NCBI GenBank assembly: GCA_977020255.1
Contig: CDROCS010000496.1
Span: 496,001-560,000 of the forward strand
DNA length: 64,000 bases
Origin: Obrimoposthia wandeli
Taxonomy: Eukaryota
Reading direction: 5' to 3'
Position 1 is the stretch's first letter. Each line of letters begins with the position of its first letter. Shown piece by piece: positions 22,641 to 45,042 of this stretch. The position numbers and the translations under genes are program-made. The notes beneath the pieces were generated by a model. The model ran no database searches. It was not told where the DNA came from and was given only the letters and a program-made list of their open reading frames with translations.

Positions 22641-22730
22641 TTCCGCCAGGCTCGCAAGCACCACATACGGACCCTACACCGGACGTCCCACGAGTTGCTG
22701 TAACTGGTAAGAACACAGACTAGGTTCATT

Positions 22731-23430: not shown

Positions 23431-23436
23431 AATAAA
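23431..23436 (+). terminator. Putative LTR polyadenylation signal
   Basis: AATAAA in context ttttgAATAAA, seen in similar context in related LTRs (about 46438, 58813, 60728). Confidence 0.5.
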
Positions 23437-23650
23437 CAATTTCCTACATTAGAACAAGTTGTTTTTACACCCTTCAGACTAAGAGACATCAAATCAAATA
23501 CCTTCAGATAGTACAAGAGATTAGGCAACCATAACACTAAGTAGGCCACGACCAACTTTAAGACCTGCTTCTAATCGAACTCACGTTGGGGTCCTCCGCA
23601 CATAAGAGGCTCTATACCAAGTTTCGTATAGAAACCCCAACATATTAAAG

Positions 23651-23669
23651 TGGTGCCCCGAGTGAGGAT
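23651..23669 (+). other. Primer-binding site, complementary to elongator tRNA-Met 3' end
   Basis: TGGTGCCCCGAGTGAGGAT, 8 nt after the LTR end; matches the complement of the metazoan elongator tRNA-Met 3' end as I recall it (TGGTGCCCCGTGTGAGGAT) with one difference. Confidence 0.75.
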
Positions 23670-23694
23670 AGCTCGTCGGACACAGCGAATTCAC

Positions 23695-23975
23695 GTAGAA
23701 TAAGTTCAGATAAGTTTTGGAAAATTGAGAATAAGTTTCAGGTGAATAGAATAAGTTCAGATAAGTTGCAGATAATTGAGAATAAGTTTCAGGTAAATAG
23801 AATAAGTACAGATATTAAGAATAAGTTTCAGATATTAAGAATAAGTTTCAGATATTAAGAATAAGTTTCAGATATTGAGAATAAGTTTCAGATAAATTGA
23901 GAATAAGTTTCAGATAAATTGAGAATAAGTTTCAGCAGAAGAAAATAGACAATTGAGAATAAGTTTCAGAAGAAG
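23695..23975. repeat. Leader tandem array 1 (20-22-bp units, core AGAATAAGTTTCAG)
   Basis: About 13 copies of the core directly downstream of the PBS. Confidence 0.9.
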
Positions 23976-23989
23976 ATATAAGTAAATTG

Positions 23990-24735
23990 AGTTAAGAATT
24001 TGATAAGTGTTGAGAAATCGAGTAGATTTGTTCCTCGAAGTTGAGAAATTGATAAGTGTTGAGAAATCGAGTAGATTTGCTCCTCGAAGTTGAGAATTTG
24101 ATAAGTGTTGAGAAATCGAGTAGATTTGTTCCTCGAAGTTAAGAATTTGATAAGTTTTTGAGAAATCGAGTAGATTTGTTCCTCGAAGTTAAGAATTTGA
24201 TAAGTGTTGAGAAATCGAGTAGATTTGTTCCTCGAAGTTAAGAATTTGATAAGTCTTGAGAAATCGAGTAGATTTGTTCCTCGAAGTTAAGAATTTGATA
24301 AGTGTTGAGAAATCGGGTAGATTTGTTCCTCGAAGTTAAGAATTTGATAAGTTTTGAGAAATCGGGTAGATTTGTTCCTCGAAGTTAAGAATTTGATAAG
24401 TTTTGAGAAATCGGGTAGATTTGTTCCTCGAAGTTAAGAATTTGATAAGTTTTGAGAAATCGGGTAGATTTGTTCCTCGAAGTAAGAATTTGATAAGTTT
24501 TGAGAAGTCGAGTGGATTTGTTCCTCGAGCCAGTAAATTTTATAAGCGAGAATCGAGTGGATTGATACTCGAAGTAATTAATTGAATAAGTTAAGTCGGG
24601 AGACTCTGTCCTCGAACTAATTAAAAAGATAAAAATCGTAAATAAATTGATAAAGTGAGAATCGAGTGGATTGATACTCGAAGTAATTAATTGAATAGGT
24701 TAAGTCGGGAGACTCTGTCCTCGAACTAATTAAAG
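23990..24735. repeat. Leader tandem array 2 (49-bp unit, ~11 copies) plus two related longer units
   Basis: Unit gttaagaatttgataagtgttgagaaatcgagtagatttgttcctcgaa (period 49, e.g. 24181 vs 24230); 24550-24735 has two copies of gaatcgagtggattgatactcgaag...gtcgggagactctgtcctcgaactaattaaa. Confidence 0.92.
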
Positions 24736-25142
24736 AGATAAAAAATCGTAAAATAAGAATTGTGAAATAAGATAAAAATAATAAGTATATTGATATCGTA
24801 AACGAATACATAATTGATAAGACAACGGATAATAGAAAAGGACCCGCGTATAATACTAGAAGACAAAGTCAGATTCCCAAGGAAGAGATAAATAATAATA
24901 AAGTTAACCGAATTGAACAGGTTCCCCAAACAGATAACAAAGTAACAGAAAAGACTAGAGTCGAAGAAAACGTATCAGAAAGAGACGTTGATCAATCAGC
25001 GGTTTCAACCGGCAGTTTTAATTTGACTGAATTATTTGGTGACATAGACCAAGAAGAATTTGAAATTGCCAATCCAGTAGTGATTGAGGAAGTTCCATTG
25101 AATAATATTGAAGAAATAGTTGAAGAAGTTATAGTTGAAAAT

Positions 25143-28100: not shown

Positions 28101-31100
28101 GGACAGTTAGCAGCGTCATTAGAGCAGTATAGTGCAGAGAGGAATGAAGATATCAGAGGTGATATGAATTCGGAAACTCCAAGTAGTAAAGATATACTTA
28201 CGGGAATTCTCAGGCAAGTGAAGCCGAAGTTGTTTAAAATGTACAGAGATGAAACAACCGATATAACAGACAATTTGACTAAAGCAGTCAGATCACAGAT
28301 GTCTGCAGTAAAGAGAATGACCGCGAATCATGTATACCATGCATCGATAGATAGATTTTATGACGGTGAAGTTTTAGCGAGATTATGTGGAAACCAGACT
28401 ACAAATAAAAAGTTAATTACAGCAATCACATATCTATGTTTCCAATTGACGGAACGAACGAGCCAACCTCACGAAGTCAAACAAGGAATAAATGAAGCAA
28501 TGTATTTGATCGAGAATGTGTTACAGAGACGAATTGACGAAAATGGAGGTTGGGCAAAATTAAGTGACTACGCTAAAACCATTTTGGAAATGAATGAAGA
28601 CGATGACGAACAATGTCATGAGAATCGTCAAAAGGAAAATAAACAATACCGTCCGAAAGAGAGAAACAATCAACCAAATATGTCCACAACAATGATGATG
28701 ATGATGTTAGTAATGTTTATGGGAATGCAACAGGCATCAGGATTGATAGCATATGACTGTAGCATACCAAAGATGGGACAAAAGTATTCACTGCTTGACA
28801 GCGAAGACTGCCCAGAGTCACAACCGTCAAAACTAGAAGTTCAAGGTGTTGAAAACTACTTTGTGTATCAGGATGTTGATAAAGTACAAGTAGAAGTGAA
28901 AGAATGTTCAATCCATTCAAGTTATCACGAATTCTATTGTGGTCATAGAAGTTTTATGTCAGAAATCACACCTACCACACCGTACAAGGCACATAAGGTT
29001 TTGCCGAGAGATTGCGAAGATGCATTTCGAACGGGAACGATAGAGGTAGACAAGAATTACAAACCTGAAGTAAAAATTGGAGTGAGACGATACGAAACAG
29101 TCACGAGAGTCGGACAACGATGGGCCGATGGATCTTGTGACGGAGGAACAAAAAACGTGCGTGGAACCAAAGTAACCGAGTTAGTAATGGACGTAACTTA
29201 CAAAATCGAATTAAAAACATGGACCGCCAATTTTGATAAAAAGACACAACTAATGATGAAGTATCCAGAATGTAAAATGACAGATACATCTTGTTTTACA
29301 GGCGAATCCACAATTGTGTATAACATAAATCCGAAGCAATGCTCTTTAGTATTTTTGAAAGAGATTAGCTTTAATAAAATAAAAGGATTCCTGTATAATA
29401 AAGATGGAGAAGGATTCCTGTATAATAAAGTTGGAAAAGGATTGCTCAATGAAACAAGACCAATCCCAATGACAAAGACACCTACACTGTTAATGGCAAC
29501 ATCAATAGAAGAAGGATTGATATTTATTAAAAAGAGAAACAAAGCGCGATGCGGAATGACTGTTAGTACTACAAACTATCCAGGAATAGTTTTGTCTAAA
29601 GAAGCAATAGCATTGGCAGAAACCAAGCTAAAACCAAAAGATATGCAGCTACATACGTATTTTAATAATAAAATTGATTTCTATTATCATAAAGGATTGA
29701 TGCAAATGGAACAGTTATATCGAATGATGATTGAAAGAGATTGCCAGCTAAACAAAGAGATCGTGAGAACAAAGTTAGCATTAGCTATTACGAATCCAGA
29801 CATGGTAGCACCATTATTACCCTTGGATGAAGGAGTATTTGCTAAAACCATGGGAGAAGTATTGTATACTTACAAGTGTAATAAAGTAGAGGTACAGTTG
29901 AGAAAAACAAATCGATGTACGAGTGAATTGGCAGTAACGTATAATTTAAAAGATCTTTTTGTTGAACCAATCACGAGAATGTTACTTCCAAAAGACACTC
30001 CAACTAAAGAAATCAGCTGCTCTAATATAATGGCACCTGAATATCAGATGACGAATAATCTATGGATAACGTTACCTGATCGGAAGCCAACGAAAACCCC
30101 AGCGATGATAAGAATGACGAATCTTAAAGGTAAAATGAAATTCCAAGCGGTGGAAAATATGGAGAACGCAGGATTGTACAATGAAAAAGACTTAAAAGCG
30201 GCGTGGAACGAAATAATGTTTCCAGTAAGAAGAGCCAGAGTACTTACGGAGATGGTACATCGAGCATTACCGCCAGGAGCGAGATATGCGAATTTTGATA
30301 TGTTATTGTCGCCAAGTCATTTCAAGGAAGCAGCACATCAGACACTTAGAAAGATGTGGGGGAAATTCCTTGTTTTAGGACAATTATTTTCGGGTATCAT
30401 AGGTATTTATGTTATAATTAAATTTGTGCAGGTAATTATAGCCCAGGTGTTGTCTACGTATAGTTTATACAGGATAACCGGAATCACCTGGCAACTTATA
30501 ATTGGATGTTTTCCATTTTTAGCAAAATATCTAATGCACCATCATCACGAGAACGAGTTGCGAGCCCTCAAGAAGGAACAACACCAAACGAGAACCATGA
30601 TGAGAGAACCAAGAAACTGTCGAGACGATAACGACGACGATAATGATAGTCCAGGAGTATATGCAAAGATACCAGGAAAACCAAAGATTCCGTTACCAGA
30701 CAAGGAAGAAGTGGCGTTAAACCTATACCCAATGAAGGAATTGAAGGAAGAGAAGGAAAAATTCAAGAGAGGCATCTTAATGATAAGATGGCCTAAAGTG
30801 AGCTACAGTGAAATTCCACAAGCAGAGGAAAAAGACAAAAAAGATAATTCCAGAAGAATTCTGAAGTCTAGGATATCAAATGAGAATCCAAATGCTCCAC
30901 CACAAGTAGCAGTAACATTGAACGGAAGAGAATATCTTGCCGAAGTTGATACCGGATCTGCAGTATCAGTACTGAGTAAAGAAATCTTGTCATCAAAAGA
31001 ATTAAGAGAAGTATGTCCTAGAAAACAGACATTTGTTAACGTGAATGGTACAGATGTAGTGTCGGAAGGAACACTGAAATGTTCATTGAATATCGATGGA

Positions 31101-31334
31101 AGAGTATTACAGTTAAATGCTAGAATATTCACAGATTGCGGTAGTCCAGTCATGATTGGGATGGACGTAATACGAATGTTTGAAGGAATAATTATACTAC
31201 CAAACAACAAGAGTTATAAGAATGACAGTTCAGTGAGAGAGATAAAAATGTTGAGAGGACCTATAGTCGAAAAGGAAAAATGCACTACGTTCCGTATGGG
31301 AAGTTCGTACCCAGACAAAAACAGGAAGCGCTAG
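25143..31334 (+). CDS. Polyprotein segment 1: Gag - UBL - AT-hook - Bcl-2-like - Env glycoprotein - aspartic protease 1
   Basis: ORF 25023-31334, first ATG at 25143 (MAQPGA). Capsid-like FLAEYSSCADVQGW..EKC; CYTCKQMGHYSRDC knuckle (26361-26402); VDTGSAVSV...IGMDVI protease (30900-31200). Confidence 0.93.
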   Translation: MAQPGAQAENNAGNNVGDMNAEQLAQALNATLRPNFSGSLQITKFKGDEESICDFLAEYSSCADVQGWNDKEKCVRVQAHLTGLALEVYKHLTEAERLDWPTLENAFIGKLVLGDLAKVNKRLMRERKQKHDEGVNEYAYVLRTLAARAYPRRIMRNQDGNPVAPEAQAAENDRNQNEMAEVLLDIFRGGLKKDIKVLLAVSDTNDFDNAVRKAREIEKNIKNNAALAIYAMTAGDDDKTKVFVNKTEPSNFQNRNYGQNKFEKIDESSNGNRDNFRSRNRDDSRGRNNSESWNRNRDDSRGRNNNDSWNRNRDDSRNRFNRDNSGNRQPWRGDDRNYNANRGERSDSRFGNNAGNSDGRFNNRGSGFESNFRRNDFRGRYDNRQNSRRVQFEDEQNKIDIRGRIMCYTCKQMGHYSRDCTRSKEFGTNRFGNNNFGNNNFGNNYRGYNSPPPWNRGGGYTPQPWRLNNQYTDRQQSPGRYNNYADRQQGAERYNNYVGQQGAERYNNSGRYNNNNVDKTNSRESSPKPKGNFSYVSDDSDRNRETELRREIDFEDSDSKFERMLGIIKDSPHTKMANSSTLSKQEKNLHSREEMNDLMNRILEAYETPIEKTCNAQPMTDHVEAARNATSMENVKKIISEAKETLNQPLDETSEAPEVLAKLQTIKVHRLEEVRAELVKHSHDNLGYKEVPRGLLKGYGRYVQRSNQTGTMKISLRLISGQIIHEKLNVYQTMKTIRKKLAEKLEIDGMNMLFHYKGRSLDDEDVPVEFGYPIGNELEEKIDVITVGRQELVDNEGLTEILNSALEMIKTPIEILDSSSESGDGDVAEAWNKTSTPEPYVTELQDMNLENELTTPVVEVPPEPDIIPIRQDEVTDTANQVRQNETVTQLVGEDEVSEIVDLDSPIWHAAYKDRQAEQMMRQSEEIGHEEGPSQEIQYNGETYDPGENQTEYQYFRRGPGRPRKGESILRNVLTAPQTDEERHLSIGQLAASLEQYSAERNEDIRGDMNSETPSSKDILTGILRQVKPKLFKMYRDETTDITDNLTKAVRSQMSAVKRMTANHVYHASIDRFYDGEVLARLCGNQTTNKKLITAITYLCFQLTERTSQPHEVKQGINEAMYLIENVLQRRIDENGGWAKLSDYAKTILEMNEDDDEQCHENRQKENKQYRPKERNNQPNMSTTMMMMMLVMFMGMQQASGLIAYDCSIPKMGQKYSLLDSEDCPESQPSKLEVQGVENYFVYQDVDKVQVEVKECSIHSSYHEFYCGHRSFMSEITPTTPYKAHKVLPRDCEDAFRTGTIEVDKNYKPEVKIGVRRYETVTRVGQRWADGSCDGGTKNVRGTKVTELVMDVTYKIELKTWTANFDKKTQLMMKYPECKMTDTSCFTGESTIVYNINPKQCSLVFLKEISFNKIKGFLYNKDGEGFLYNKVGKGLLNETRPIPMTKTPTLLMATSIEEGLIFIKKRNKARCGMTVSTTNYPGIVLSKEAIALAETKLKPKDMQLHTYFNNKIDFYYHKGLMQMEQLYRMMIERDCQLNKEIVRTKLALAITNPDMVAPLLPLDEGVFAKTMGEVLYTYKCNKVEVQLRKTNRCTSELAVTYNLKDLFVEPITRMLLPKDTPTKEISCSNIMAPEYQMTNNLWITLPDRKPTKTPAMIRMTNLKGKMKFQAVENMENAGLYNEKDLKAAWNEIMFPVRRARVLTEMVHRALPPGARYANFDMLLSPSHFKEAAHQTLRKMWGKFLVLGQLFSGIIGIYVIIKFVQVIIAQVLSTYSLYRITGITWQLIIGCFPFLAKYLMHHHHENELRALKKEQHQTRTMMREPRNCRDDNDDDNDSPGVYAKIPGKPKIPLPDKEEVALNLYPMKELKEEKEKFKRGILMIRWPKVSYSEIPQAEEKDKKDNSRRILKSRISNENPNAPPQVAVTLNGREYLAEVDTGSAVSVLSKEILSSKELREVCPRKQTFVNVNGTDVVSEGTLKCSLNIDGRVLQLNARIFTDCGSPVMIGMDVIRMFEGIIILPNNKSYKNDSSVREIKMLRGPIVEKEKCTTFRMGSSYPDKNRKR
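27276..27506 (+). other. Ubiquitin/SUMO-like domain within segment 1
   Basis: MKISLRLISGQIIHEKLNVYQTMKTIRKKLAEKLEIDGMNMLFHYKGRSLDDEDVPVEFG...KIDVITV; beta-grasp pattern with SUMO-like F-x-Y-x-G...D-x-P...IDV; no terminal diGly. Confidence 0.7.
28188..28590 (+). other. Bcl-2-like helical domain within segment 1
   Basis: BH2-like RRIDENGGWAKL (NGGW at 28542-53); degenerate BH1-like GNQTTNKKLITAITYLCFQL at Bcl-2-like spacing. Confidence 0.55.
28680..30540 (+). other. Chuvirus-like (class III, gB-type) envelope glycoprotein within segment 1
   Basis: Signal-like MSTTMMMMMLVMFMGMQQASG then LIAYDC..YSLLDSEDC; ERDCQLNKEIVRTKLALAITNPD..GEVLYTYKC.KVEV..R.T.RC..EL.V, as in chuviral G proteins; C-terminal TM FLVLGQLFSGIIGIYVIIKFVQVII. 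Confidence 0.85.
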
Positions 31335-32090
31335 CAAAGTCGATACTTCACTACAAAAATGTAAATTTCGGACCACAAGATACGACGAGGAGAAAAATAA
31401 CATACGTAAATCTGTCAGAAAGGGATCCCATGAGATTCGAGAGAAAGAGACGAAATATATTAGAACAGTACTATTCAAAAGGAATGGCACGTAAAATGGC
31501 AAGATCAGGTTTAGAAATGTTAAACGCGACAAGCAGTTATGGTCAGGAGATAGTAGTACGATGCGTATGGTGTAGAGTAAAGTTTAGAGAATGGGAACAG
31601 AATGAAAACCCAATGAGACGTCATAAAGAGATGCACCAAATTGTCCATTTCTTTTGAAACTGAAAACGTCAAACGTACCAGAAATCCAAACGGGAAAAGC
31701 ACCCGATTTCGATTACAGTGACGGGATTCCAAAAGGAGAATCAGCTCTAATAACAGGAAGAGTAATAACGAATAGTCGAATTGAAGATATATTCGAAGTT
31801 ATGCGAGAAGTGAACGAATGTGACGAACAATATCGAGAAGTAACTTTCGAAGATCCAAGACTTAAAAAATTGGCAAAAAAGGAATTTTTGCTATAAAAAG
31901 GGATGGTAACGACGTAATTAAATGCCACAAGTGTAAAAAAGAACGAATTATCGACAGATACACTCTTGAGCTACCTAAGAAAATTTTACATCATGAATTT
32001 TGCGAATTTTGTACTTGTAAAAACAAAATAAAGCAAAAAGAACAGAAAACCGAATGTATAATCGAATACCAAATCACACGGAAAGAGATT
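31280..32090 (+). CDS. Polyprotein segment 2: two BIR domains (split across three frames)
   Basis: BIR1 KMARSGL...VVRCVWC..F.EWEQNENPMRRHKEMH[P]NCPFL, completed by one-base repair at about 31637. BIR2 RLKKLAK[K]GIFAIKRDGNDVIKCHKC...ILHHEFCEF, completed by one-base repair at about 31878; this frame runs into ORF 32091. Confidence 0.8.
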
Positions 32091-34496
32091 TTGGCTCAAC
32101 AAGACACACCGGTAGTGTCATTCGTGAGAAGGTTATATCCAAAAGAAGCAGAAAGAATCAGAGAATTGGTAGAATTAAAAATAAAAACTACGCGAAACGG
32201 ATATGGATCGATTTTTGAATTACTGCGAGATAAAGATGACAGTACAATTGAAACAAAAGAGAAAGAGTACATAAATGAACTAGAATACGTACTAGAAGAT
32301 CCGGAATGCGCAGTTTGCATGGTTAACAAAATAGAAGTTGCCTTTCTACCATGCGGACATGTAAGAACATGTCGGAGATGTGCGAATGAAATGGTATCAT
32401 GTCCGATTTGTCGAAGAATAATAGATCGACAAGTGAGAAACATTAGATTTCACTATCCAAACATAGGAAGTGGACGGACAGAGTGTAATAATTCGATAAA
32501 TACAATATACCATATGGGAAACATAAATGGAGCACAGCGACCAGCAGCTATCATTAGAGTAAATAATTTAAGAGTAAAAGCTTTAATTGATACAGGTGCT
32601 GTAGCTTCGATAGTAAGTGAAGACTGTTTGACAGAGGAACAGAAACGAACAATGGCAGAACCAGATGAATTCTTGGTATCGGTCAATGGAGACCCTGTAA
32701 AAGTGACGGGAATATTACCATGTACATTTATAATTGGACGTAATACGATCACTATACCAGTTAGAATCATGAAAGAATGTCCTGAACCTACAATTTTAGG
32801 AATGGATGTATTATCACAACTCAAAGGGATAAGTATTGATTTACAGGATCCAAGATTGAAGGATAGTACATCAAACAGACAAATAAACCAAATTGATGTA
32901 ATTATAGAGAATCCTATAAAAATCGGTAAAAGATCACAATTTCTCATTCAAGGTCACACATTATCAGAAGATAAAGGACCAGTTGTGTTCGAACCATCAC
33001 GAGATTTCATAGAGAAATACGAACTACCAGTTGTGAGTACGGTATGCCTGATCGAAAACCACAAAATACCAGTTAGACTGATGAATACAACCAACAATGA
33101 CATTCTATTATACAGAGGAATGAGGTTGGGAAAGATAGCACAGATGGAGAATTCCACTGTATGCGCTATGAAACTCGATAAAGATACGAATGATTACGAA
33201 GAAATAGTAATCCAATCAGAAAGACTAACAACTAGAGAAAAGAAACAATTACTTGATCTAATACATAAATTTCCGAAAGTAATTGCAAAAAATCCATATG
33301 ACATAGGAGAAACACCTGTCATAAAACATACAATACCACTGACAGAAGACAAAGTAGTCAGAAGAAGACCATATCGAGTACCATTACAATTACAAGATGA
33401 AGTAAAAAGTCAGATTGAAGATATGTCTAAAACAGGAGTAATTAGACCGAGTTTTTCGCCATTCTCAGCACCTGTAGTGTTGGTAAAAAAGAAGGATGGG
33501 AAAATGAGATTCTGTATAGATTTCAGAGAACTGAACAAGATCACAAGAAAAGATGTGTATCCATTACCTAGAATCGAAGAGATGCTCGATAAATTGGGTA
33601 ATTCAGATTATTTTACAACATTGGATTTGCAGAGTGGATACTGGCAAATCGAGATAGAGGAAGAGGATAAACACAAAACAGCCTTTTCTTGCGGAGATGG
33701 ATTATACGAATGCGAAAAGATGCCATTCGGACTGACAGGAGCTCCAGCAACATTTCAGCGTTGCATGAATTTTGTACTCGCATCGTGTGCAAATACGATG
33801 GTTTATATCGATGACATAATAATATTTTCGAAAACGTTCGAAGAACATTTAAAAAATCTTGAAGTTGTATTTAAAAGACTGGAAAACGCTAAATTAAAAG
33901 TTAAACCTACAAAATGCGTATGGGCTAAAGAGCGAGTAACATTTTTAGGACATATAGTATCGAAAGAAGGCATTCGACCTGATCCAGCAAAGATCGAGAA
34001 AGTAAAAGCGCATTTAGCGCCAAAGACTGTTAAAGAGATACAGAGTTTTTTAGGTCTTGCAAATTATTATAGACGATTTGTTGAACATTTTTCAGATATA
34101 GCAACACCATTGAGAAAGTTGACGAGAAAAGATGAGAAGTTCATATGGGGAGAAGAAGCCCAACAAGCGTTCGAGCATTTAAAAGAAAGACTGATAAAAG
34201 CACCAATATTAGCGTTTCCAGATATAAACCGACAATTCATACTAATGACAGATGCAAGTAACTATGCTGTAGGAGCAGTATTGGGACAAGAGGATGACGA
34301 AGGAAGAGAACACGTCATTGCGTATGCGAGTAGAGGATTAAACAGAGCCGAAAGAGGATACTCTGTTATCGAAAAGGAATGTCTAGCCATAGTGTATTCA
34401 TGTAGACAGTACAGACACTATTTGCTAGGACAAAAGTATTCCTGTATACAGATCACAAACCACTACAGTTCTTGTATAAACATAGAGATGAGATGA
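32091..34496 (+). CDS. Polyprotein segment 3: IAP-type RING - aspartic protease 2 - RT - RNase H (N-part)
   Basis: CAVCMVNKIEVAFLPCGHVRTCRRCANEMVSCPICR (32307-32411); LIDTGAVAS..ILGMDVL; RFCIDFRELN..YPLPRI, MPFGL..AP.TFQ, YIDD (33804-15); MTDASNYAVGAVL, YSVIEKECLA. Confidence 0.97.
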   Translation: MAQQDTPVVSFVRRLYPKEAERIRELVELKIKTTRNGYGSIFELLRDKDDSTIETKEKEYINELEYVLEDPECAVCMVNKIEVAFLPCGHVRTCRRCANEMVSCPICRRIIDRQVRNIRFHYPNIGSGRTECNNSINTIYHMGNINGAQRPAAIIRVNNLRVKALIDTGAVASIVSEDCLTEEQKRTMAEPDEFLVSVNGDPVKVTGILPCTFIIGRNTITIPVRIMKECPEPTILGMDVLSQLKGISIDLQDPRLKDSTSNRQINQIDVIIENPIKIGKRSQFLIQGHTLSEDKGPVVFEPSRDFIEKYELPVVSTVCLIENHKIPVRLMNTTNNDILLYRGMRLGKIAQMENSTVCAMKLDKDTNDYEEIVIQSERLTTREKKQLLDLIHKFPKVIAKNPYDIGETPVIKHTIPLTEDKVVRRRPYRVPLQLQDEVKSQIEDMSKTGVIRPSFSPFSAPVVLVKKKDGKMRFCIDFRELNKITRKDVYPLPRIEEMLDKLGNSDYFTTLDLQSGYWQIEIEEEDKHKTAFSCGDGLYECEKMPFGLTGAPATFQRCMNFVLASCANTMVYIDDIIIFSKTFEEHLKNLEVVFKRLENAKLKVKPTKCVWAKERVTFLGHIVSKEGIRPDPAKIEKVKAHLAPKTVKEIQSFLGLANYYRRFVEHFSDIATPLRKLTRKDEKFIWGEEAQQAFEHLKERLIKAPILAFPDINRQFILMTDASNYAVGAVLGQEDDEGREHVIAYASRGLNRAERGYSVIEKECLAIVYSCRQYRHYLLGQKYSCIQITNHYSSCINIEMR

Positions 34497-35737
34497 GTAG
34501 ATTAAACAGATGGTTTCTAAAATTGGCCGAATTCGATCTAGAAATCCGTTATAGAACCGGAAAGTCGAACGGCAACGCAGATTGTTTGTCGAGATTGACA
34601 AATGTAGACGAGAAAGGAAACATAATTCCAGAAGAAGATGAAACCAATGACCAAAAAGGAGAAGCAAATCTACTGACGATTTTGCTAAAGACGGGTAAAA
34701 TAGACAAAGAGATCATCAAAGAACAGAAAGAAGATGAAGAACTGAGTCTAATCAAAGAATTGTTGGTGAAAGGAGATCTAAACGATGAAATGACGAAAAA
34801 TACTCAATAAAAAGAAGGAATCTTGTATATTGTCAATAATGTCGGAAAGATAGTAGTAGTAATTCCGAAGTCATTGAAAACAGCAGTGATGATCCAGTAT
34901 CACGACGGAACACTAGGAGGACATCTGTCAGGGCGAAAGACAATAGCCAGAATCAAAGAGAAGTACCATTGGGATGGTATGGAAGACGACATAAAACAAT
35001 GGTGTAAACAATGTAAAGTATGTTTAACCAGAAAAGACACCGGAACTCGTACTAAAGTTCCACTGAAACCAATGCCAGTTCCCTTGGCACCAATGGAATT
35101 CACAGCGATGGATATATTGGGACCATTGAGAGAATCAAGTAAAGGAAACAAGTATGTCATAGTATTTACGGATTACATGACGAGATGGGTAGAAGCATAT
35201 CCCATGCAGAACCAGAAAGCTGAAACAATAGCGCAAATCTTAGTGGAAGAGATAATATTTCGATACGGAGTGCCTAGAAAGTTGTTAACGGATCAAGGTA
35301 AGAACTTCACTGGAGAAGTCATAAAAGCAGTATCGAAGATATTCGGAATCATGAAGTTACAAACTTCACCATATCACCCACAGACAGATGGTCTGGTGGA
35401 AAGGTTTAATAAAACTTTATGTATGATGGTACAATCCTATTGCTCAGACAAGCAAGAGGATTGGGATAAATATTTACCTTCATGTTTATATGCTTACAGG
35501 AATTCAGTTCGAGAGGCGACGGGTCACACACCATTCTATCTGATGTATCTCAGACAGAACAATATGCCAATGGATCTGGAGTGGACCGAGCCAACATCTC
35601 AGTACCTAGAAACTGAACAATACATTGTCGTCATGAAGGAAAGATTACAAGATGCTTGGACCAAAGCCGGATTGAAGTTGAAATTCAATCAAGAAGGTTA
35701 CAAGGAACAATACGACAAAAAAGCAAAAACCACATGA
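34472..35737 (+). CDS. Polyprotein segment 4: RNase H C-part and integrase Zn/core (in-frame TAA at 34808)
   Basis: TDHKPL in shifted frame, NGNADCLSR, YHDGTLGGHL...CKQCKVC, AMDILGPL, LLTDQGKNF, QTDGLVERFNKTL. Confidence 0.95.
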
Positions 35738-35756
35738 ATTTAGAGTCGGAGATCAA

Positions 35757-38700
35757 GTGATGATATTTTATCCAGTCATCGAACCAGGTCTATCGTTTAA
35801 ACTTCATAGACCATACAAAGGACCCTACAAGGTGATCCAGACAACCTCAACAAATTTGAAAGTAATCAACGAAGAGAATCGGAACAAAGAACCGATGATT
35901 GTACATGCAAATCGATGCAAATTAGTACCAAATAAAGATAATGCGTCACGATATGAGTTAAGATCACAGAAATCGAAATCGAATACCAATACCATTAAAC
36001 TTACACGAATGGTAAGTGATCGGAACTACATAAACATGATGACGAGTGGTAGCGAAGAAAAACCAGCGAGAATTGGTATGCTCAGAATGAAGTACCAAGA
36101 GGAAAAGGAAGTAATCCGACACATCGCACCACAAGAGATATTAGAAGAAGACGAAGAGATAATAGTCGTTTTCGAAAAAACACAACCAACAGATGTAGCT
36201 AAAGAAGTCATTGTGAAAGATGCACTAACAAACGAATTTCTGTGCGAACTTAGAGTATCATACTACGACGGAAATACATTAGTCGCAGCACTTTATCAAA
36301 ATTCCAATGTGTTTACGACTGAGAAAGTGATAATCGAAATCACATTGACACCAAACATAGTTGCATGGCAGAACTATGACAGTACTGAAGCAGGACTAGC
36401 CAGTCAGGAAGAAAAAGAACCGGCCGGTGGTCACATACTGCATGGTACACCAAAAAGACTCAAACAAGAATACCACGATGTAATAATGGTATTACGTAAT
36501 TCACATGGGAAAAGAGATATCATGAGAGTCCATTTAATCGACGCTGACACTGAAAAGATAATTTGTCAGATGGACACCAAATACTTTGATGGAAAGACAA
36601 TTGTATGTTGTATACCAGAATCTCACCGATTAGAGACAGATCAAACGGAAGTATCTGTAAGGTTGAGCGTAATAGAAGGATTCCATTCGCCAACCTATCC
36701 GGAAGTGACTAACAATAAAATCATCAAAGCAACGGCAGAATTACGCATTGACAGCGGATACCGGAAGTGGGAAGCTAAAAATAAAAAACCACAAAGAATC
36801 AATATGATCCGAGAACAAGTAACAACTTCAAACCAGCCAAAATATCATGCTGAAATAGTATCATCCGCGCCAAGTGTGATCACATCGATAAACGACGAAA
36901 TTATAATTTTACTAAAAAATCGATGGCCGTCATCAACCGAGATACGAGTAAATTTAATTAATCATGCGAAGACACCGATATCTAAGCTGAATGTTACCTA
37001 TTTCGATGGATTGTCCATCATGGGTAAATTGGAAACAATTGTCATGTGCTATGGAGCACAGTTCCAAGTTGAGATACTTAAAGATAGTGTAATACCGTAT
37101 CCGATTCACAAATACGAAGGGGAAATCAATCCAATTATTCTAACACCTTCATTAATTTCAGTCCAGACAGACATACCAGAATACCCTTCGAGCGAGTCTA
37201 GTGAAGACAGCGAACCAGAAAGTAACGATACAGAATCAACAGAATCCGAAGATAACATAATAGAGCGATTCGGAAGAACCATGGAGATTGAATTCGCTAA
37301 AGAGAGCAGAAAAAGACAAAACATAGAATTCGTGAAACAGAATATACAAGAAAGACGAATTAAATCTGCAGAAGAGACCGAGTCGGAAGAAGACTCAACA
37401 AAGGAACAGACATCAGAGACAAAGATGAATATCTCTCCAGCAATACGAATGCTGAGAGGAAAGAAACTGGCGAAACTATCCAACATCGACGAACAGATAG
37501 AGAAGAGATTAGAAAGACTAAAACTTGAAGAGTCAGAATTAATGCCACCAATGAGTGAGATCATTCCAGGTAAGTTATACCTCGGAAATGTGGAGGATGC
37601 AACAGATGAAAAGAAACTGTTGGAACAAGGAATAACATATGTGATCAACGTTACAATGAATCACAAATCGCAATATCAGACGATCAGAGCTATGACATTA
37701 AGAGTAAAAGACTCAATGGACGCTAATCTTCTCGAATGGTTCGTAGAAACAAACGAAATACTTCACAGAGAACTCCGGAACAAAGGAAAAGTGTTGGTAC
37801 ATTGTCAGAAAGGAATTTCTCGATCAGCAACCCTAGTATTAGCATATCTAATAAAGACTAGACGAATGCAGGTACTAGAAGCGTTAAAATACCTACAGGA
37901 GAGAAGAAGTATTGCAAACCCAAATCTTAATTTTTTGGGACAGTTGGCAAATTACCAACTTCTGTTGCAAGAACAAAGACGGATGGACGACATTCCTGAG
38001 GATCCAAAGGAAAAGAATTTCCTCCAAGCATTATCATTGACCGGGTTATTTTTAGCCGGAGTCGATAAAATTACACAGATAATGCCAAAAGTATTTTTAT
38101 GTCATCCAGGAGATATAGATACTGCTGGATTAAAGTTCCATAGTATCAACCGAGTAATCAACATTGTTGAAGTCGGAAATGAGATAATTAGTCTGTGTCA
38201 AAATACTGAAGATGACACCACTCGATACATACATGCTTCCAATCGAGAGATAAACGATGCACAACAACATTTGACGAAATTGACTCAAACCATCCAAGCT
38301 GAAGTCACAGAAGGAAACGGCGTTCTGATATATCAGAAAAAAGGTACAATGTTAGCGCCTACCATAGGTGTATCCTTGTTGGTAGAGTACCATGGTCACA
38401 CGCCAGAAGAAGCAATGGTCTACATCAAACAGAATAGACCGAATACGGAATTCAAACCGTTACTCGTTCGAGAAATAGAGAAATACACCGAAAAGAGGAA
38501 ACAACAACGAGAAACAAATGAAGCTACAACAACAGCGCCCAGCTTTCAATACCAAAGATTGCTAGCGATAGGCTTGTTAAGTTGTTTAATGCCGATAACG
38601 GGAGCACAGGAGATAGGCTCCAACCACGGAAATAGTTCCTGGTTCAACGAAATCCAAAATTACACCATACAGTACCATACGCCAGCACTGATGATGCTAT

Positions 38701-39809
38701 TAGTGTTGTTAGGACTAATTGATGTGTGGATCATCCGAAAATGTCTTCGATCTATGAGAACCGACAGTAAAAGATTTCAGTTTGTAAAGATGAAAAGACC
38801 AAATGGACCAACGAACAAAGTGCTTGTGTATCTAGACGAAAGGATCGAGGACAACATAGTAAATGAAGCGATATTTTACCCACAAAACAGAATACTGAAT
38901 CAATTTCGAATAGATTACGAAGCTGACCGACAGCGCACACTTGACCGAATATCAACAACATTCGCCGGATGCAAGCGAAGTAAACGAGTTGTAAAGGAAA
39001 TACAAAAAGATGCTGATACAAAAGGACCAACGTATATATTCAACGGAGATGTCATCAAAACACGTGAGTATGGAAGTAAGAGAGTAATAATTGAAACAAT
39101 GGAAGGACATAAAACATGCTTGTCCGCCAAAAATGGATTCGGAAAGTTGACGATACAAGGTAAACCGGTACAGTTGATTATCGGAAGAGATGGAATCGAG
39201 GAGATGTCAAAACAACGACAGACAACAAAACGATACAATCAGAAACAGATATCTCTCAAACGATTGATAATTAAAACCCTTTGTAAAAGGTCGGTCAAGG
39301 CCCTGTGCACCGTTGCACAAGGATTGATTTATGGAGTAGTAATTGGATTGGTACTGCAAGCCATGCCAACCAGTAAAGCCGAATTGATGACACTATCCGA
39401 ATATAATTTACATTTGAGAAATCTAGACAACACCCTAGAAATAATCAAGACATCCCACAGTAAAGCCGTGATGATCATGTGTGTAAAAGGATGTCCAGGA
39501 CGAATGTGTATAGTCCCAGCGACCGAAATGATAACACTTAGTGGACATTATGGAATTAGTGTTGTCACATGTGAAGACTACATATTTGGACAAACTAAAA
39601 TAGTGCTTCTCAGTGACAAGTCCAACCAAAGTGCACACAAATTTAAAATATTAACCATCAAGAGTAAAGGAATACCAGCAGTACGTTACGGTATTCTAGA
39701 ATTGGTTAATCCAATACTCGCACTGATCATTGGATTTATAATATTAATATTACTCATCTTGTTTTGTTGTTCAAAGATAGAGTCGAGATCAAAAAAAGAA
39801 ACGTCATGA
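35757..39809 (+). CDS. Polyprotein segment 5: integrase C-terminus (GPY) - three ~90-aa repeats - DUSP - pseudo-DUSP - two membrane proteins
   Basis: PYKGPYKV..VHANRCK; DUSP 37551-37960 with VLVHCQKGISRSATLVLAYL; second DUSP-fold copy about 38070-38490 with VLIYQKKGTMLA; four hydrophobic segments 38556-39770. Confidence 0.9.
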   Translation: MMIFYPVIEPGLSFKLHRPYKGPYKVIQTTSTNLKVINEENRNKEPMIVHANRCKLVPNKDNASRYELRSQKSKSNTNTIKLTRMVSDRNYINMMTSGSEEKPARIGMLRMKYQEEKEVIRHIAPQEILEEDEEIIVVFEKTQPTDVAKEVIVKDALTNEFLCELRVSYYDGNTLVAALYQNSNVFTTEKVIIEITLTPNIVAWQNYDSTEAGLASQEEKEPAGGHILHGTPKRLKQEYHDVIMVLRNSHGKRDIMRVHLIDADTEKIICQMDTKYFDGKTIVCCIPESHRLETDQTEVSVRLSVIEGFHSPTYPEVTNNKIIKATAELRIDSGYRKWEAKNKKPQRINMIREQVTTSNQPKYHAEIVSSAPSVITSINDEIIILLKNRWPSSTEIRVNLINHAKTPISKLNVTYFDGLSIMGKLETIVMCYGAQFQVEILKDSVIPYPIHKYEGEINPIILTPSLISVQTDIPEYPSSESSEDSEPESNDTESTESEDNIIERFGRTMEIEFAKESRKRQNIEFVKQNIQERRIKSAEETESEEDSTKEQTSETKMNISPAIRMLRGKKLAKLSNIDEQIEKRLERLKLEESELMPPMSEIIPGKLYLGNVEDATDEKKLLEQGITYVINVTMNHKSQYQTIRAMTLRVKDSMDANLLEWFVETNEILHRELRNKGKVLVHCQKGISRSATLVLAYLIKTRRMQVLEALKYLQERRSIANPNLNFLGQLANYQLLLQEQRRMDDIPEDPKEKNFLQALSLTGLFLAGVDKITQIMPKVFLCHPGDIDTAGLKFHSINRVINIVEVGNEIISLCQNTEDDTTRYIHASNREINDAQQHLTKLTQTIQAEVTEGNGVLIYQKKGTMLAPTIGVSLLVEYHGHTPEEAMVYIKQNRPNTEFKPLLVREIEKYTEKRKQQRETNEATTTAPSFQYQRLLAIGLLSCLMPITGAQEIGSNHGNSSWFNEIQNYTIQYHTPALMMLLVLLGLIDVWIIRKCLRSMRTDSKRFQFVKMKRPNGPTNKVLVYLDERIEDNIVNEAIFYPQNRILNQFRIDYEADRQRTLDRISTTFAGCKRSKRVVKEIQKDADTKGPTYIFNGDVIKTREYGSKRVIIETMEGHKTCLSAKNGFGKLTIQGKPVQLIIGRDGIEEMSKQRQTTKRYNQKQISLKRLIIKTLCKRSVKALCTVAQGLIYGVVIGLVLQAMPTSKAELMTLSEYNLHLRNLDNTLEIIKTSHSKAVMIMCVKGCPGRMCIVPATEMITLSGHYGISVVTCEDYIFGQTKIVLLSDKSNQSAHKFKILTIKSKGIPAVRYGILELVNPILALIIGFIILILLILFCCSKIESRSKKETS

Positions 39810-41222
39810 TCTCGCAAGACGAACAGGTCAAATGAATTTACAAAATTCAACACAATTATACCAAGACCACCATTTTTAGACGAACCAGCACCAGAATACC
39901 AGCCAACGATATATGAACACATCGAGGAAAGACCGTACTATATGAGTAATTTGACTTGTTTCATTGAAGTTCCTGAGTTTAGGAATCGAACGATCATAGG
40001 AATCATGCTGATCGCACAAATCACCACTACCAAGGCTAGTTATGAGATCATGATCAGTAAATGGAGACAAGACGTAATACGGGCAATATACATAGAAATT
40101 CCCCTACTAAAAACAAATCACGTAGTAGACATTCATCTACAGACGTCAGCAACTGACAATATCGATCAGAAATTGTATGTCATCCGACAGGTCAGAATAA
40201 AAATCGACCAAAATACACCCGTTTACAATTTAATATTATTGCATCATGAAAGAGTGTTATACCTACGGATAACAATATCAAAGAGGAAGCGGATTATCCA
40301 AAGCATCCGAACAAAGTCATTAATATTACCTAGAGATGAGCGCATCTGGAAAATTGTCGACAGGATTATGATCACAGGTAGACGACGTAAAGCCGTATGG
40401 AATTCCGTTAGGTTATTTTTCAGATTGCTAGAAACTGACAGCGTGACAGTAATGTGTCCCAACCCAGATGGCGTAATCAGATTCGAAATCCAAAGCCAAA
40501 TGTTAGTACCACATTTTAACACAGAATGTCTGTGTAATCGAATTGCCAGTAATTCTACAGAGACCTCGACCATAATCATGATAATAACAGGTGAAATATT
40601 CTACATAACTCTAAGATACCAGAACCGTCGATTTCGCAGATACGGTATAAGTATCAAACCCAGGAAAATCATTCCCAGAAGACCAATTCTAGTCAAAAAG
40701 AAGGCAAAGGTAATCGAAAGTAAACGACATTCCAAGAAACCGACAGTGATCAAAACAAAGACAGAAGCGAAAGAAAAAGAGTCCAATCCCAGAAACCAAA
40801 GTACAATTATTAAGAGGACAAGAGTGAGGGGAACGATCCCACTAGATCCCAAACATCATTTTCCATCCAAAATAATAATACCTGTTCCACCAGAAACAAA
40901 ACACCCAAATCCCCGAATTTTTAGAAAATCGGACATAATACATGGAAACCGATCAAAACCCATGGAAATATCATTCGAACCGACAAACAACAAAATGAAG
41001 TATGATTATAAATCATCAGACAGCGGAATAACAGCGGTCAATGCCCTAATTGGAATGGCCGTAGTGTCAACAGCAGTGGTTTTATTGACAATCGTGTGCG
41101 TAAAAGGCAGTCAAGTATGCCCAGGAATACGACGGAAATGCGAAGGATTGCGATGCTGTGACACACCCATCATGGAGGAAGTGGAATTGCGACCCTTACC
41201 TCCGCCTCCCATCAAGATATGA
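39810..41222 (+). CDS. Polyprotein segment 6: predicted type I membrane protein (same frame as segment 5 past a single TGA)
   Basis: Frame is open from 39810 into ORF 39942-41222; signal-like IIGIMLIAQITTTKA, TM AVNALIGMAVVSTAVVLLTIVCV, tail RPLPPPPIKI*. No family recognised. Confidence 0.7.
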   Translation, partial: SRKTNRSNEFTKFNTIIPRPPFLDEPAPEYQPTIYEHIEERPYYMSNLTCFIEVPEFRNRTIIGIMLIAQITTTKASYEIMISKWRQDVIRAIYIEIPLLKTNHVVDIHLQTSATDNIDQKLYVIRQVRIKIDQNTPVYNLILLHHERVLYLRITISKRKRIIQSIRTKSLILPRDERIWKIVDRIMITGRRRKAVWNSVRLFFRLLETDSVTVMCPNPDGVIRFEIQSQMLVPHFNTECLCNRIASNSTETSTIIMIITGEIFYITLRYQNRRFRRYGISIKPRKIIPRRPILVKKKAKVIESKRHSKKPTVIKTKTEAKEKESNPRNQSTIIKRTRVRGTIPLDPKHHFPSKIIIPVPPETKHPNPRIFRKSDIIHGNRSKPMEISFEPTNNKMKYDYKSSDSGITAVNALIGMAVVSTAVVLLTIVCVKGSQVCPGIRRKCEGLRCCDTPIMEEVELRPLPPPPIKI

Positions 41223-41345
41223 TGAGTCAGAGGAGGTTGTAGATAAATTAGTGTGTGAAATATGTAGAAATATCTAGAAGCGATTGTACAAATAGTAGAA
41301 GTATATAAAACTCATGTGGAAATTAATCATCATCATGTATTTAGA

Positions 41346-41645
41346 ATGGCCGAGGAATGCCCAATATGTTTAGAAGATCTAACCGAACGAAGAACAAGAC
41401 CCGAAACCTGCAACCATTTACACCACGAGGAATGTTTATCGACATGGATCAGAACTTATGGACAGTTCGGACACCCAACATACCCTCGTTGCCCTATATG
41501 CAGAAGACAATTCGCAAGATTCGTCATGTTAGAACCCAACCAAAGGGATGTATATGTACAGGTGGTATTCTGCTGGAAGAATTTCGGAGAGTGTTGGTGT
41601 TATTACTGTTTGTCAGATCGACAAAATCAGACCACTTTTGTGTAA
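41346..41645 (+). CDS. Small RING-H2 protein 1
   Basis: MAEECPIC...TCNHLHHEEC...CPIC plus C-terminal CWKNFGECWCYYC; TATA-like gtatataaaa at 41301. Confidence 0.85.
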   Translation: MAEECPICLEDLTERRTRPETCNHLHHEECLSTWIRTYGQFGHPTYPRCPICRRQFARFVMLEPNQRDVYVQVVFCWKNFGECWCYYCLSDRQNQTTFV

Positions 41646-41705
41646 AGATCACACAACCACCAGTCCTCAATCGAGCCCAAATTCAACATCAACCCTCCCA
41701 CAGTA

Positions 41706-42011
41706 ATGTCTGGAGAATGTTCCATCTGCTACGAGAGCATCGTGGACTTCTACACCAAGCCCAACAACTGCGACCACTTTTTCCACGTCGAATGCCTCGA
41801 GACGTGGATTCCCATCGCAAACAGCAACAACCCACTCGACTTCCCAACCTGCCCGATGTGCAGAGCGACCTTCTCAGTACACTACGTGTACAACCAAGAC
41901 AGCCTCCAAGCAGTGGTACCCATCGTACACTGCTGGAAAACCATCTGCGATTGCTGGTGCTCGTTCTGCGTGGAGGAGCGAAGCACAGGCCAGCCCAATC
42001 CCCAACAATAA
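41706..42011 (+). CDS. Small RING-H2 protein 2
   Basis: MSGECSIC...NCDHFFHVEC...CPMC plus CWKTICDCWCSFC. Confidence 0.88.
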   Translation: MSGECSICYESIVDFYTKPNNCDHFFHVECLETWIPIANSNNPLDFPTCPMCRATFSVHYVYNQDSLQAVVPIVHCWKTICDCWCSFCVEERSTGQPNPQQ

Positions 42012-42345
42012 TCGAAGGTAACTTTCTGACTTGAACGTGACATCATGAACTACCCTGTGTATCGCAAACCGCGATAAATTAGCTACCATAATTGTAATCA
42101 TAATTATATAATCTTGTGAACTGTAAATTGACCATTACCATTTTTATGTATGATGTTTAACTGAAATTGTAATTATTATACTGAATTTCTAAAAAAGACA
42201 ATTTTTATGCTTAGTGTGAATGCGTAAACATGCCTAAAATCGAAACAAAACTCGGTAGGATTAGATAACTAAGGATTCATTTTGAAATAGAATTTAAATT
42301 AACGATGAGAACGGTGAACCCCAAATTGAAAGGAGTCATTTTCTC

Positions 42346-42882
42346 ATGCAGATGTTGTGCTCCGTATGCATGGAGAAGATTTGGGCGGTATCGGCATCCC
42401 CTGTCGGCTGCCGTCACAAATTTCACGAGGAGTGCCTCTATTTGTGGACCAAGGTTCGAACCTCCGGACAAATCACCTGTCCACTGTGCCGGACACCCTT
42501 CGCCAAATGGACACTCCAGAGCCGCGGAAGACACAAAGGCACCCGATCGCCTGCCAGCTGCATTGGTGGCATCCATTGCCAATGCTACGTGTGTCTCGCA
42601 CGCCGGCGCGACACACAACTGGGCGTCCGCGAGAGATGGCGGTCTAGTCGAGACTGCCACTCGTGGTTCCAGGCCAGACGGCACTGGATTGAAAACCATA
42701 CCATGAACAGGCAGCACTTCGACCTGTTCATCGACAGCCCGCATTTGACCCGGAGCCAGCAACTCCATTTGTACAACGGGGACAGTCCGTCCTTTCCCGA
42801 CCTTCCCCTGGAGCAGGTTCTACGCTACCTGACCAGTCGGAACCAGCCGACAATAACAATTGACCTCACACATGAAAACTGA
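42346..42882 (+). CDS. RING-H2 protein 3 with C-terminal SIM-like motif
   Basis: CSVC...GCRHKFHEEC...CPLC, CIGGIHCQCYVC, C-terminal PTITIDLTHEN*. Confidence 0.85.
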   Translation: MQMLCSVCMEKIWAVSASPVGCRHKFHEECLYLWTKVRTSGQITCPLCRTPFAKWTLQSRGRHKGTRSPASCIGGIHCQCYVCLARRRDTQLGVRERWRSSRDCHSWFQARRHWIENHTMNRQHFDLFIDSPHLTRSQQLHLYNGDSPSFPDLPLEQVLRYLTSRNQPTITIDLTHEN

Positions 42883-43152: not shown

Positions 43153-45042
43153 TGTTAAGGTTGAGAATTAAGAAAATTAAATAATTTAGTTGATTAAATA
43201 CTAAAATAAAAATCCTTGAAAGCAAGGTCGAAAATTAAATTAAAATAATAATTTAAGTTTTAGAATTAAAATTAGTGAAATTTAGGGTAAAATTAGGAGG
43301 ACCACGAAGGTCGTGTATTATGCGAAAATGTATAAAAGTTTAAAGTTAATTAACCAAAGGGACAAAAATAAGAAATTAATTAAAAGAAAAACGGTTAATT
43401 AAAACCGTCAATCAAGAAAGAAAAAGGTAAGCACATTTTGAGTGCAACGAGATTAATTGATTTTTTAGCAACAGAAACTTTCAAATTTCGAGACCAGCTG
43501 TCATTGATTGACAGAATCCGGAGACTCGTATAGAAACCTTCAGTAATCACGGTAAACAGCTGTCATTTGATTGACACGACTGTTCCTATATAAGGAAACG
43601 AAAATTAACCACAATCACAAATACGGGATTCAACTCCCTGACCACAAACAGAACCATTAAGTTCTCGTGTCCAAAAAGCTGATTGTATAAAGGTAAACGT
43701 TCCAGTCAGTAAAGATAATTGATTTTATTATTGTATTAAAGGTAAACGTTCCAGTCAGTGAAGATAATTGATTGTTAATAAGCTCTGTTTCGAAGAAGAT
43801 TCCCAGTGAAGATAATTGATTGTTAATAAGCTCTGTTTCGAAGAAGATTCCCAGTGAAGATAATTGATTGTTAATAAGCTCTGTTTCGAAGAAGATTCCC
43901 AGTGAAGATAATTGATTGTTAATAAGCTCTGTTTCGAAGAAGATTCCCAGTGAAGATAATTGATTGTTAATAAGCTCTACTTCGAAGAAGATTCCCAGTG
44001 AAGATAATTGATTGTTAATAAGCTCTGTTTCGAAGACGATTCCGCCAGGCTCGCAAGCACCACATACGGACCCTACACCGGACGTCCCACGAGTTGCTGT
44101 AACTGGTAAGAACACAGACTAGGTTCATTCATTGCCCCTAGTAGGCAATTAGGATATATTCATTACCCCTAGTTGGTAATTCTATATTTTCTTAATAATA
44201 CACAAATTCATTGCCCCTAGCTGGTAATTAGGATCACTGCCTCTTTACCACAATCATTGCCCCTAGTTGGTAATTAGGATCGGACCTTTATTCATTGTCC
44301 CCAGCGACAATTAGGAAACCTACCAGACGTTTTTTCCCGTAAGATTCATTGTCCCTAGCTGGCAATTAGGTTCATTCATTGCCCCTAGTTGGTAATTCGG
44401 ATAAATATTCATTGTCCCTAGTAGACAATTCGGTAAGATTCATTGTCCACTAGCTGACAATTCGGTTCGTTCATTGTCCGTAGTTGACAATTAGGAGTAA
44501 GTTTTCATTGTCATCTTGACAATTAGGTTTTTAGGAGATCCCTTGTCTACAGTAGACAATTCGGGTCAAACACACAGAGAGAGTAAGGAACAAAGAAACA
44601 TTTAGCTAGAGATCAGAAGTAGGAGCGAAGAAATTTAAGAGAGTTGCGTTATAGATTAACCAACCTAAGTAAGAAGACTAAACCTAAGAAACTTAATCAC
44701 CTGAACGTAAAATCGATACGTGGTTCATCCCCACTTCTTGTAGAGACTTACAGAAGTCCTTTAGGAATTTTATCATACTTTTTAGAAATACGTACATAAA
44801 CGTATTGTGGTGTTAGTTACGTGAATTTTGAATAAACAATTTCCTACATTAGAACAAGTTGTTTTTACACCCTTCAGACTAAGAGACATCAAATCAAATA
44901 CCTTCAGATAGTACAAGAGATTAGGCAACCATAACACTAAGTAGGCCACGACCAACTTTAAGACCTGCTTCTAATCGAACTCACGTTGGGGTCCTCCGCA
45001 CATAAGAGGCTCTATACCAAGTTTCGTATAGAAACCCCAACT
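43153..45042 (+). repeat. 3' LTR (1,890 bp)
   Basis: Copy of 21754-23642 at offset 21399/21400; ends ...CCCCAACT followed by TSD CTAT. Confidence 0.97.

Follow-up and report, generated by a model that had tools for sequence, protein, structure and literature searches.

Three short open reading frames, each with a RING-H2 domain, stand between the coding region of a giant LTR retroelement and its 3' LTR, and their position raises the questions of what kind of proteins they encode and how such downstream frames are expressed. They were noticed in a preliminary description of the window (the whole stretch of 64,000 nucleotides analysed here), which regarded them as a cassette of small viral-type E3 ligases with a novel Cys-rich module. 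The present analysis favours, with moderate confidence, a reading in which the three frames, hereafter R1, R2 and R3, are accessory genes of a Burro-like element, expressed by splicing and coding for RING E3 ligases that carry an unnamed and putatively Zn-binding Cys4 module adjacent to the RING. Positions are those of the window, and the LTRs, coding regions and expression signals of the element lie on the forward strand.

The element that carries the cassette

The cassette belongs to a Burro-like Ty3/gypsy element of 23.3 kb, bounded by a 5' LTR (21754..23642) and a 3' LTR (43153..45041) of 1889 bp each. The LTRs are 99.9% identical and CTAT is found on both outer flanks of the pair as a target duplication, which together indicate a recent insertion. 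Adjoining this duplication, the terminal base differs between the LTRs (AACT at 45038-45045 in the 3' copy, AACA at 21750-21757 in the 5' copy). A PBS-like site lies at about 23651, and tandem arrays are present both in the LTR (48 nt, 22261-22740) and in the leader (49 nt, 23941-24744). Fragments at 58862-58997 and 20425-20566, about 76% alike to the LTR start and end, represent older relatives. A GC-richer segment at 52519-54045 contains consecutive ORFs of 263 and 244 aa that by eye resemble a decayed DNA-transposon gene, and no Pfam match was obtained for either of them.

A single frame at 24771..31334, with its first ATG at 25143, encodes gag (zf-CCHC), ubiquitin-like, BCL2-like, env and protease regions. 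The env is a Monjiviricetes-type fusion protein (PF24664, E = 1e-94), and the ubiquitin-like (E = 0.0035) and Bcl-2 (E = 0.06) matches ahead of it are both weak, as is the match of the BCL2-like region to the vBCL-2 structure 1k3k (E = 0.058). An IAP-like module of BIR (E = 5.5e-7) and C3HC4 RING (zf-C3HC4_3, E = 1e-12) follows at 31226..32500, and pol, with protease, RT, RNase H and integrase in the Ty3/gypsy order, at 31866..35737. The BIR-RING module has an aspartic protease-like domain on either side (24771-34496), and more than one protease copy is also present in the polyproteins P0151 and P0152. The post-integrase coding region (35760..41222) was found by Pfam (DSPc, E = 8e-40) and by a repeat and TM scan to hold three unnamed repeats, a DUSP with a pseudo-DUSP, and TM segments; it closes with a 426-aa ORF without Pfam match, whose end lies 123 nt upstream of R1. 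The three repeats, of about 100 aa each, lie between the integrase and the DUSP at 36081-37100 and share a Y[YF]DG motif (36261, 36582 and 36999); they are reminiscent of IPT/TIG domains, but Pfam and PDB searches gave no significant match for them. At 37570-38500, a DUSP whose HCQKGISRS loop is intact precedes another DUSP-like copy, which has YQKKGTMLA in the equivalent place and is probably a pseudophosphatase.

In the present copy, pol is split into several ORFs and frames and the BIR-RING module is spread across frames; since pol is broken, the cassette may have decayed too. Contigs from four runs of one sample include 323,000-382,000 per run that fall on the element, covering all 30 bins of 31000-43300, and many of these copies are 90-99% alike to the element. 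The family is thus highly repeated, and R1 and R2 are present in other copies. Two of the three copy differences inside R1 and R2 are synonymous, among the 40 of 476 differences listed. In each of the four runs, the contig depth summed over 42508-42918, which comprises most of R3, reaches about one-tenth of the depth found for pol, R1 and R2; since contig depth is unable to rank parts of the element, this offers no more than a lead that a minority of the copies carry R3.

RING-H2 domains and the Cys4 tail

R1 (41346..41645, 99 aa) and R2 (41706..42011, 101 aa) each comprise a RING-H2 domain, a beta-hairpin and a Cys4 motif (41571-41609 and 41931-41969, respectively), while R3 (42346..42882; 178 aa, or 176 from the ATG at 42352) comprises a RING-H2 domain, a Cys4 motif (42559-42594) and an extension of about 90 aa. 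Their description as three RING-H2 frames between the polyprotein and the 3' LTR was borne out in coordinates and C3H2C3 pattern: C5, C8, C22, H24, H27, C30 and C-P-x-C are invariant, and all three score above the curated cut-off of zf-RING_2 (E = 3e-10, 4e-9 and 1e-7). When all six frames of the 64 kb were scanned, the RING-H2 pattern turned up three times, as did the Cys motif, in each case only within R1-R3. A hydrophobic residue after the first Cys, a helix Trp, a Pro and a linchpin Arg are the RING residues for E2 binding and activation, and all three proteins have I/V after the first Cys, the helix Trp, P-x-C and the linchpin Arg. R1-R3 are probably RING E3 ligases of the monomeric type. 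The AF2 model of R2, built on a 33-row alignment (mean pLDDT 84.5), shows the RING, a confident beta-hairpin at residues 58-72 and a helix at 86-93; the tail, modelled like the rest without Zn, has a pLDDT of about 60-73, and a model from the three sequences only was poor (pLDDT 55). The combination of RING and hairpin may point to an ancestry of the PHRF1/SCAF11/TOPORS type.

The three paralogs are about 33% identical to one another, and nucleotide similarity between them is gone. In leave-one-out profile searches R1 and R2 score 87 and 79 bits, respectively, and R3 scores 46 bits on a profile of R1 and R2; generic RINGs reach 50-56 bits. The expanded family proposed earlier is therefore clear for R1 and R2, with no further member in the searched library, whereas R3, scoring no better than generic RINGs, belongs to it by position and spacing and not by score. 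The compositional contrast with pol also held: the GC content is 43% in R1, 54% in R2 and 57% in R3 against 36-40% in pol and integrase, and GC3 (0.42, 0.75 and 0.69, respectively) is sharply unlike that of pol. Such a difference is expected of captured genes, and could mean that the frames are neutral passengers, namely host RING retrocopies that were captured, duplicated in the 3' region and left without function, the splice acceptors described below being leftovers of the host genes. This is very improbable, since proteins that have diverged to about 33% identity and still keep all the RING ligands, the E2 residues and the Cys motif would have needed long purifying selection.

The Cys clusters reported after each RING were all found in place. 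The motif C-x5/6-C-x-C-x2-C starts exactly 24 residues past the last RING Cys in all three proteins, and shuffles of each 47-aa tail reproduce it at frequencies of 0.0003, 0.0017 and 0.0004, values that are not independent draws because R1, R2 and R3 are paralogous. Between R1 and R2, 21 of 52 residues are identical in the RING, 2 of 19 in the linker and 7 of 13 in the motif; the higher identity of the motif than of the linker indicates that it was selectively kept. Pfam returned no family for any of the three tails at E ≤ 10, with PHD, CXC/CRC, B-box and C2HC included, although short, diverged motifs can escape profiles, and a PDB search with the tail profile gave no significant match. The best PDB match, a thyroglobulin type-1 (CWCV) likeness with an E-value of 0.26 over 15 residues and without the fourth Cys, was rejected; thyroglobulin type-1 carries C-x5/6-C-W-C-V inside a secreted disulfide domain. 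As far as Pfam, the PDB and the searched libraries go, the Cys4 tail thus appears to be unnamed, in agreement with the novelty claimed for it.

A Zn site is the likely meaning of the four Cys residues. They could instead form an S-acylation patch for membrane anchoring, or a degenerate remnant, on otherwise ordinary RING E3s, as the mixture of Cys with aromatic residues (CWCYYC, CWCSFC), the low confidence of the tail model and the lack of any fold match past about residue 76 of R2 would allow. We consider this alternative improbable: R3 keeps the exact C-x-C-x2-C spacing without the tryptophans and at the fixed offset, there is no TM segment (maximum 19-aa hydropathy 1.1), and the motif leads into a predicted helix, in the manner of C-x2-C Zn knuckles, which run into a helix. 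For the putative Zn site, a substrate-binding role appears no likelier than a structural one: RNF125 depends on a neighbouring Zn finger for the stability of its RING and for the binding of E2s (PMC4944129, in part). The C2HC element of RNF125 lies just C-terminal of the RING, a placement resembling that of the Cys4 tail (excerpts of PMC4944129); unlike the tail, it has another ligand pattern and no sequence match to it, and RNF125 structures match the RING only.

An HMM search, as proposed along with the motif, did not find it elsewhere at the depth reached: a full HMMER search of 1.84 billion representatives gave 3619 matches at E ≤ 0.001, and in none of the best 150 is a RING followed by the motif within 60 aa, a listing in which a relative at the level of R1 and R2 (79-87 bits) would show and one at the level of R3 (46 bits) could be missed. 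With the RING cassette as query, a word-index protein search yielded none of 81 candidates at E ≤ 0.001, a search of longer proteins one of 122, a generic RING, and a search of viral contigs two loci, one of which (L001) encodes a C-terminal RING without a Cys4 tail. PHROGs and phage tblastn searches gave no matches. In the ESM Atlas, whole R1 fell among generic small RING clusters, mostly viral, and the tail alone scored 0.76, which is chance level. Across the protein libraries, the best 150 HMMER matches and the viral-contig locus L001, no homologue combining RING and motif was found outside the window, and the motif therefore rests on the three paralogs.

Fold searches with R2 gave nine matches at E ≤ 0.001 (TMq 0.44-0.63), including baculovirus PE38/IE2 and herpesvirus ICP0-type proteins, in which the RING part alone was matched and the tail barely covered. 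The ICP0 rows align about 75 columns, spanning the RING and the hairpin of R2, with an rmsd of 2.4-3.4. Viral RING E3s (ICP0, PE38/IE2/CG30 and the small RINGs of iridoviruses) are thus the best neighbours of R2 in predicted fold, although the PE38/IE2/ICP0 rows are only 15-27% identical to it and none of these E3s is known to have the Cys4 tail. ICP0-class RINGs are of the C3HC4 type and lie within large proteins. The epithet viral-type, applied earlier to the family, is retained for the likeness of these RING paralogs in predicted fold and not for a viral origin, because the close sequence matches also include a tapeworm protein and a beetle protein.

The tapeworm matches bear on how many proteins the cassette encodes. 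R1 and R2 share one reading frame, parted by one stop and 20 sense codons, and could form a single tandem double-RING protein through stop read-through or a nonsense change in the present copy. Tapeworms have proteins with two RINGs in tandem and a similar P-x-x-C-x-H signature (P0004, Hymenolepis), the spacer between R1 and R2 (41646..41705, 60 nt, in frame) has a coding-like GC content of 48%, and excision of the 334-nt intron-like spacer would place R3 in the same frame too. Against this stand the ATG of R2, at a position matching that of R1, and its own predicted acceptor; R2 also stops before the predicted intron, a shared frame has a one-in-three chance, and no fused form was found, albeit by weak searches. 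A fused protein is accordingly thought improbable, and R1 and R2 are treated below as separate products. As regards the spacers, said to be AT-rich, this is true of the one between R2 and R3 (42018..42351, 334 nt, 31% GC) but not of the one between R1 and R2.

Signals for expression of the cassette

The preliminary description had left internal promoters, splicing and reinitiation side by side as routes to the downstream frames. Each RING ATG is immediately preceded by a predicted 3' splice acceptor. That of R1 (41323..41344) has a branch-like TTAAT at 41323 and a TTTAG ending 1 nt before the ATG at 41346; that of R2, CCCTCCCACAG, ends at 41703 within the 60-nt spacer, 2 nt before the ATG at 41706; and that of R3, TTTTCTCATGCAG, ends at 42351, directly before the ATG at 42352, the second in-frame ATG of R3. 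A rule combining a pyrimidine tract with YAG was passed by 5 of the 439 internal ATGs on the forward strand, and three of the five are the RING starts; over 16 settings of distance and window p ranges from 6e-7 to 1e-3, the rule having been devised after the sites had been seen. In the host flanks the share of ATGs that pass the rule is higher (11 of 380 and 8 of 295), and five further YAG sites within the cassette score equally well.

TATA and donor scans of the 5' LTR gave a TATA at 22188 and candidate donors at 22294, 22343 and 22707, none of which stands out. The stretch 21930..25142, which takes in the greater part of the 5' LTR together with the PBS-like site and the leader, contains no ATG in 3213 nt, where about 68 are expected by base shuffling (minimum 42 in 2000 shuffles) and 30 CAT occur; an ATG-free leader is expected for translation of gag anyway. 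No two of the three acceptors share a phase, as would fit a non-coding first exon. The TATA-like box claimed at 41301 was found one position further on, at 41302..41309 (TATATAAA), upstream of R1, where it may act as a rival promoter; a transcript from it would serve R1 alone and would include an out-of-frame ATG at 41335. Given the acceptor before each RING ATG and the ATG-free leader, the likeliest route to the RING frames is alternative splicing that starts from the LTR, in preference to the internal TATA, and the AATAAA at 44831 in the 3' LTR is likely to be the shared poly(A) signal.

The same acceptors could, quite apart from LTR splicing, serve for SL trans-splicing, the cassette being an operon resolved by the spliced-leader machinery of the host and possibly transcribed from the TATA at 41302. 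This would be the main rival route if the host is a flatworm, and Burro elements are known from planarians. A flatworm spliced leader may supply a terminal AUG, which would here be in frame for R3 only. Neither AATAAA nor ATTAAA occurs between R1, R2 and R3, and a GT donor at 42018 (AAG/GTAACT, 6 nt past the R2 stop), which opens the 334-nt spacer, suggests cis-splicing. The gaps in the cassette, of 123, 60 and 334 nt, are in keeping with trans-splicing, and in flatworms SL trans-splicing, operons with short gaps and acceptors common to cis- and trans-splicing are reported in the part of the literature considered (PMC12582326). On balance trans-splicing is held to be unlikely, and splicing from the LTR remains the preferred route.

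An open frame of 225 codons (41357..42034, forward strand) overlaps R1 and R2 in the +2 frame relative to them. It is open in 0.0018 of 5000 synonymous shuffles, and in none of 45 polyprotein windows is that +2 frame open; the signal comes mostly from R1 (0 stops against 3.4 expected, p = 0.006). Its product has no Pfam match below an E-value of 0.05 and no PHROG match. As five alternative frames were tested per ORF, coding by the overlapping frame is suggestive only. The same relative frame is also open across the first 98 codons of R3.

Probable roles and comparison with known systems

In the favoured reading, RNA initiated in the 5' LTR would have a leader donor joined to any one of the three alternative acceptors, and in each spliced mRNA the RING ATG would be the first AUG, as for the accessory genes of complex retroviruses. 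The products would act as RING E3 ligases of the monomeric type, in which the hairpin and the third Zn site (Cys4) would form one small module packed on the RING, stabilising it and/or presenting a surface to substrates. Together with the rest of the cargo (IAP, BCL2-like, ubiquitin-like and DUSP), they may act against host proteins that hold the element in check, by ubiquitinating them. Interference with apoptosis and ubiquitination in the host has already been suspected for Burro-type elements, and spliced E3 ligases of about 100 aa would provide small, easily expressed handles on the targets of such elements. The cassette suggests that the element carries its own tools for destroying host proteins, and the Cys4 tail would count as a new module next to the RING.

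R3 ends in ITIDLTHEN, and its SIM-like ITIDLT (42853-42870) may direct it to SUMOylated targets. The (I/V)DLT core occurs once in the 5835 aa of the element ORFs, at residues 172-175 of R3, and four times in the 44,542 residues of 150 RING matches; shuffles of the R3 tail yield it at a frequency of 0.008, the motif having been noticed first and tested after. This core is described as a SUMO-binding motif in the parts considered of two sources (PMC4907222, PMC3901395), of which one reports the dependence of RNF4 on tandem SIMs (PMC3901395) and the other describes ICP0 as a SUMO-targeted ligase that counters silencing (PMC4907222). SUMO-targeted ligases gain avidity for SUMO chains from several SIMs or from acidic flanks. 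A DLT-type scan found one such motif in R3, followed by one acidic residue; with a single motif, noticed before its test, and little acidic flank, an ICP0-like R3 is put forward as a hypothesis. If it were SUMO-directed, a retrotransposon would have in R3 its own equivalent of herpesvirus ICP0. A wider scheme would combine a retrovirus-style splicing programme that yields three E3 ligases built on a new RING-hairpin-Cys4 module, an R3 that resembles ICP0 in being SUMO-targeted and removes the machinery of SUMO-dependent silencing in the host, as a counter-defence of the transposon through targeted degradation, and a fourth protein overprinted on R1-R2. This scheme seems rather unlikely to hold in all its parts.

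Expression of 3' genes from alternative acceptors is a feature of complex retroviruses and of env-bearing gypsy elements. The arrangement predicted here agrees with theirs in having a single LTR promoter, a donor in the leader, several acceptors ahead of short 3' ORFs and a shared poly(A) signal in the 3' LTR; it differs in that the 3' ORFs are self-contained RING ligases, the env lies inside the polyprotein and splicing is at the level of prediction.

Burro/GYPSM1 are giant gypsy-like LTR retroelements of planarians that carry apoptosis and ubiquitination cargo and accessory ORFs, according to the excerpts of their description used here (PMC6431247). The present element shares with them an env of the mononegavirus fusion type placed in frame between gag and protease, a BIR with RING, accessory ORFs, a high copy number and tandem repeats in both the LTR and the leader (PMC6431247, in part). 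Burro elements also have ubiquitin/SUMO-like and then BCL2-like domains ahead of env, to which the weak matches found here in the same order may correspond. It differs in its length of 23.3 kb against more than 30 kb and in its DUSP, which is absent from the Burro domains in those excerpts, and MATH and ankyrin, both Burro features, had no Pfam match at E ≤ 0.1 in the element ORFs scanned (PMC6431247, in part). On account of the shorter length and the lack of a MATH or ankyrin match, the element is named Burro-like and not Burro1. Burro1 is described as being under PIWI control (PMC8532177, in part), and a second-hand report credits its BIR-RING (IAP) with the protection of stem cells in planarians (PMC13465017, in part).

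Among other sequences, the polyproteins P0151 and P0152, with the same layout as the element, have no RING Pfam match within them. Viral contigs gave no matches to the integrase and env queries, and a metagenome scan with env matched two loci. One of these (L004, 440-8521) encodes a compact 2693-aa gag-env-pol polyprotein with an in-frame env and little cargo, on a contig that stops 0.5 kb past the polyprotein, and is possibly a small relative of Burro-type elements.

The excerpted Burro description is without a 3' RING-H2 triplet, Cys4 tail or spliced subgenomic RNAs (PMC6431247), and a literature search found no title or abstract on such a 3' RING cassette, though the primary Burro papers may yet describe one. 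Thus, giant retroelements with RING cargo are already known, and on the sequence comparisons made here the 3' RING-H2 triplet with its Cys4 tail appears to be a new addition to them.
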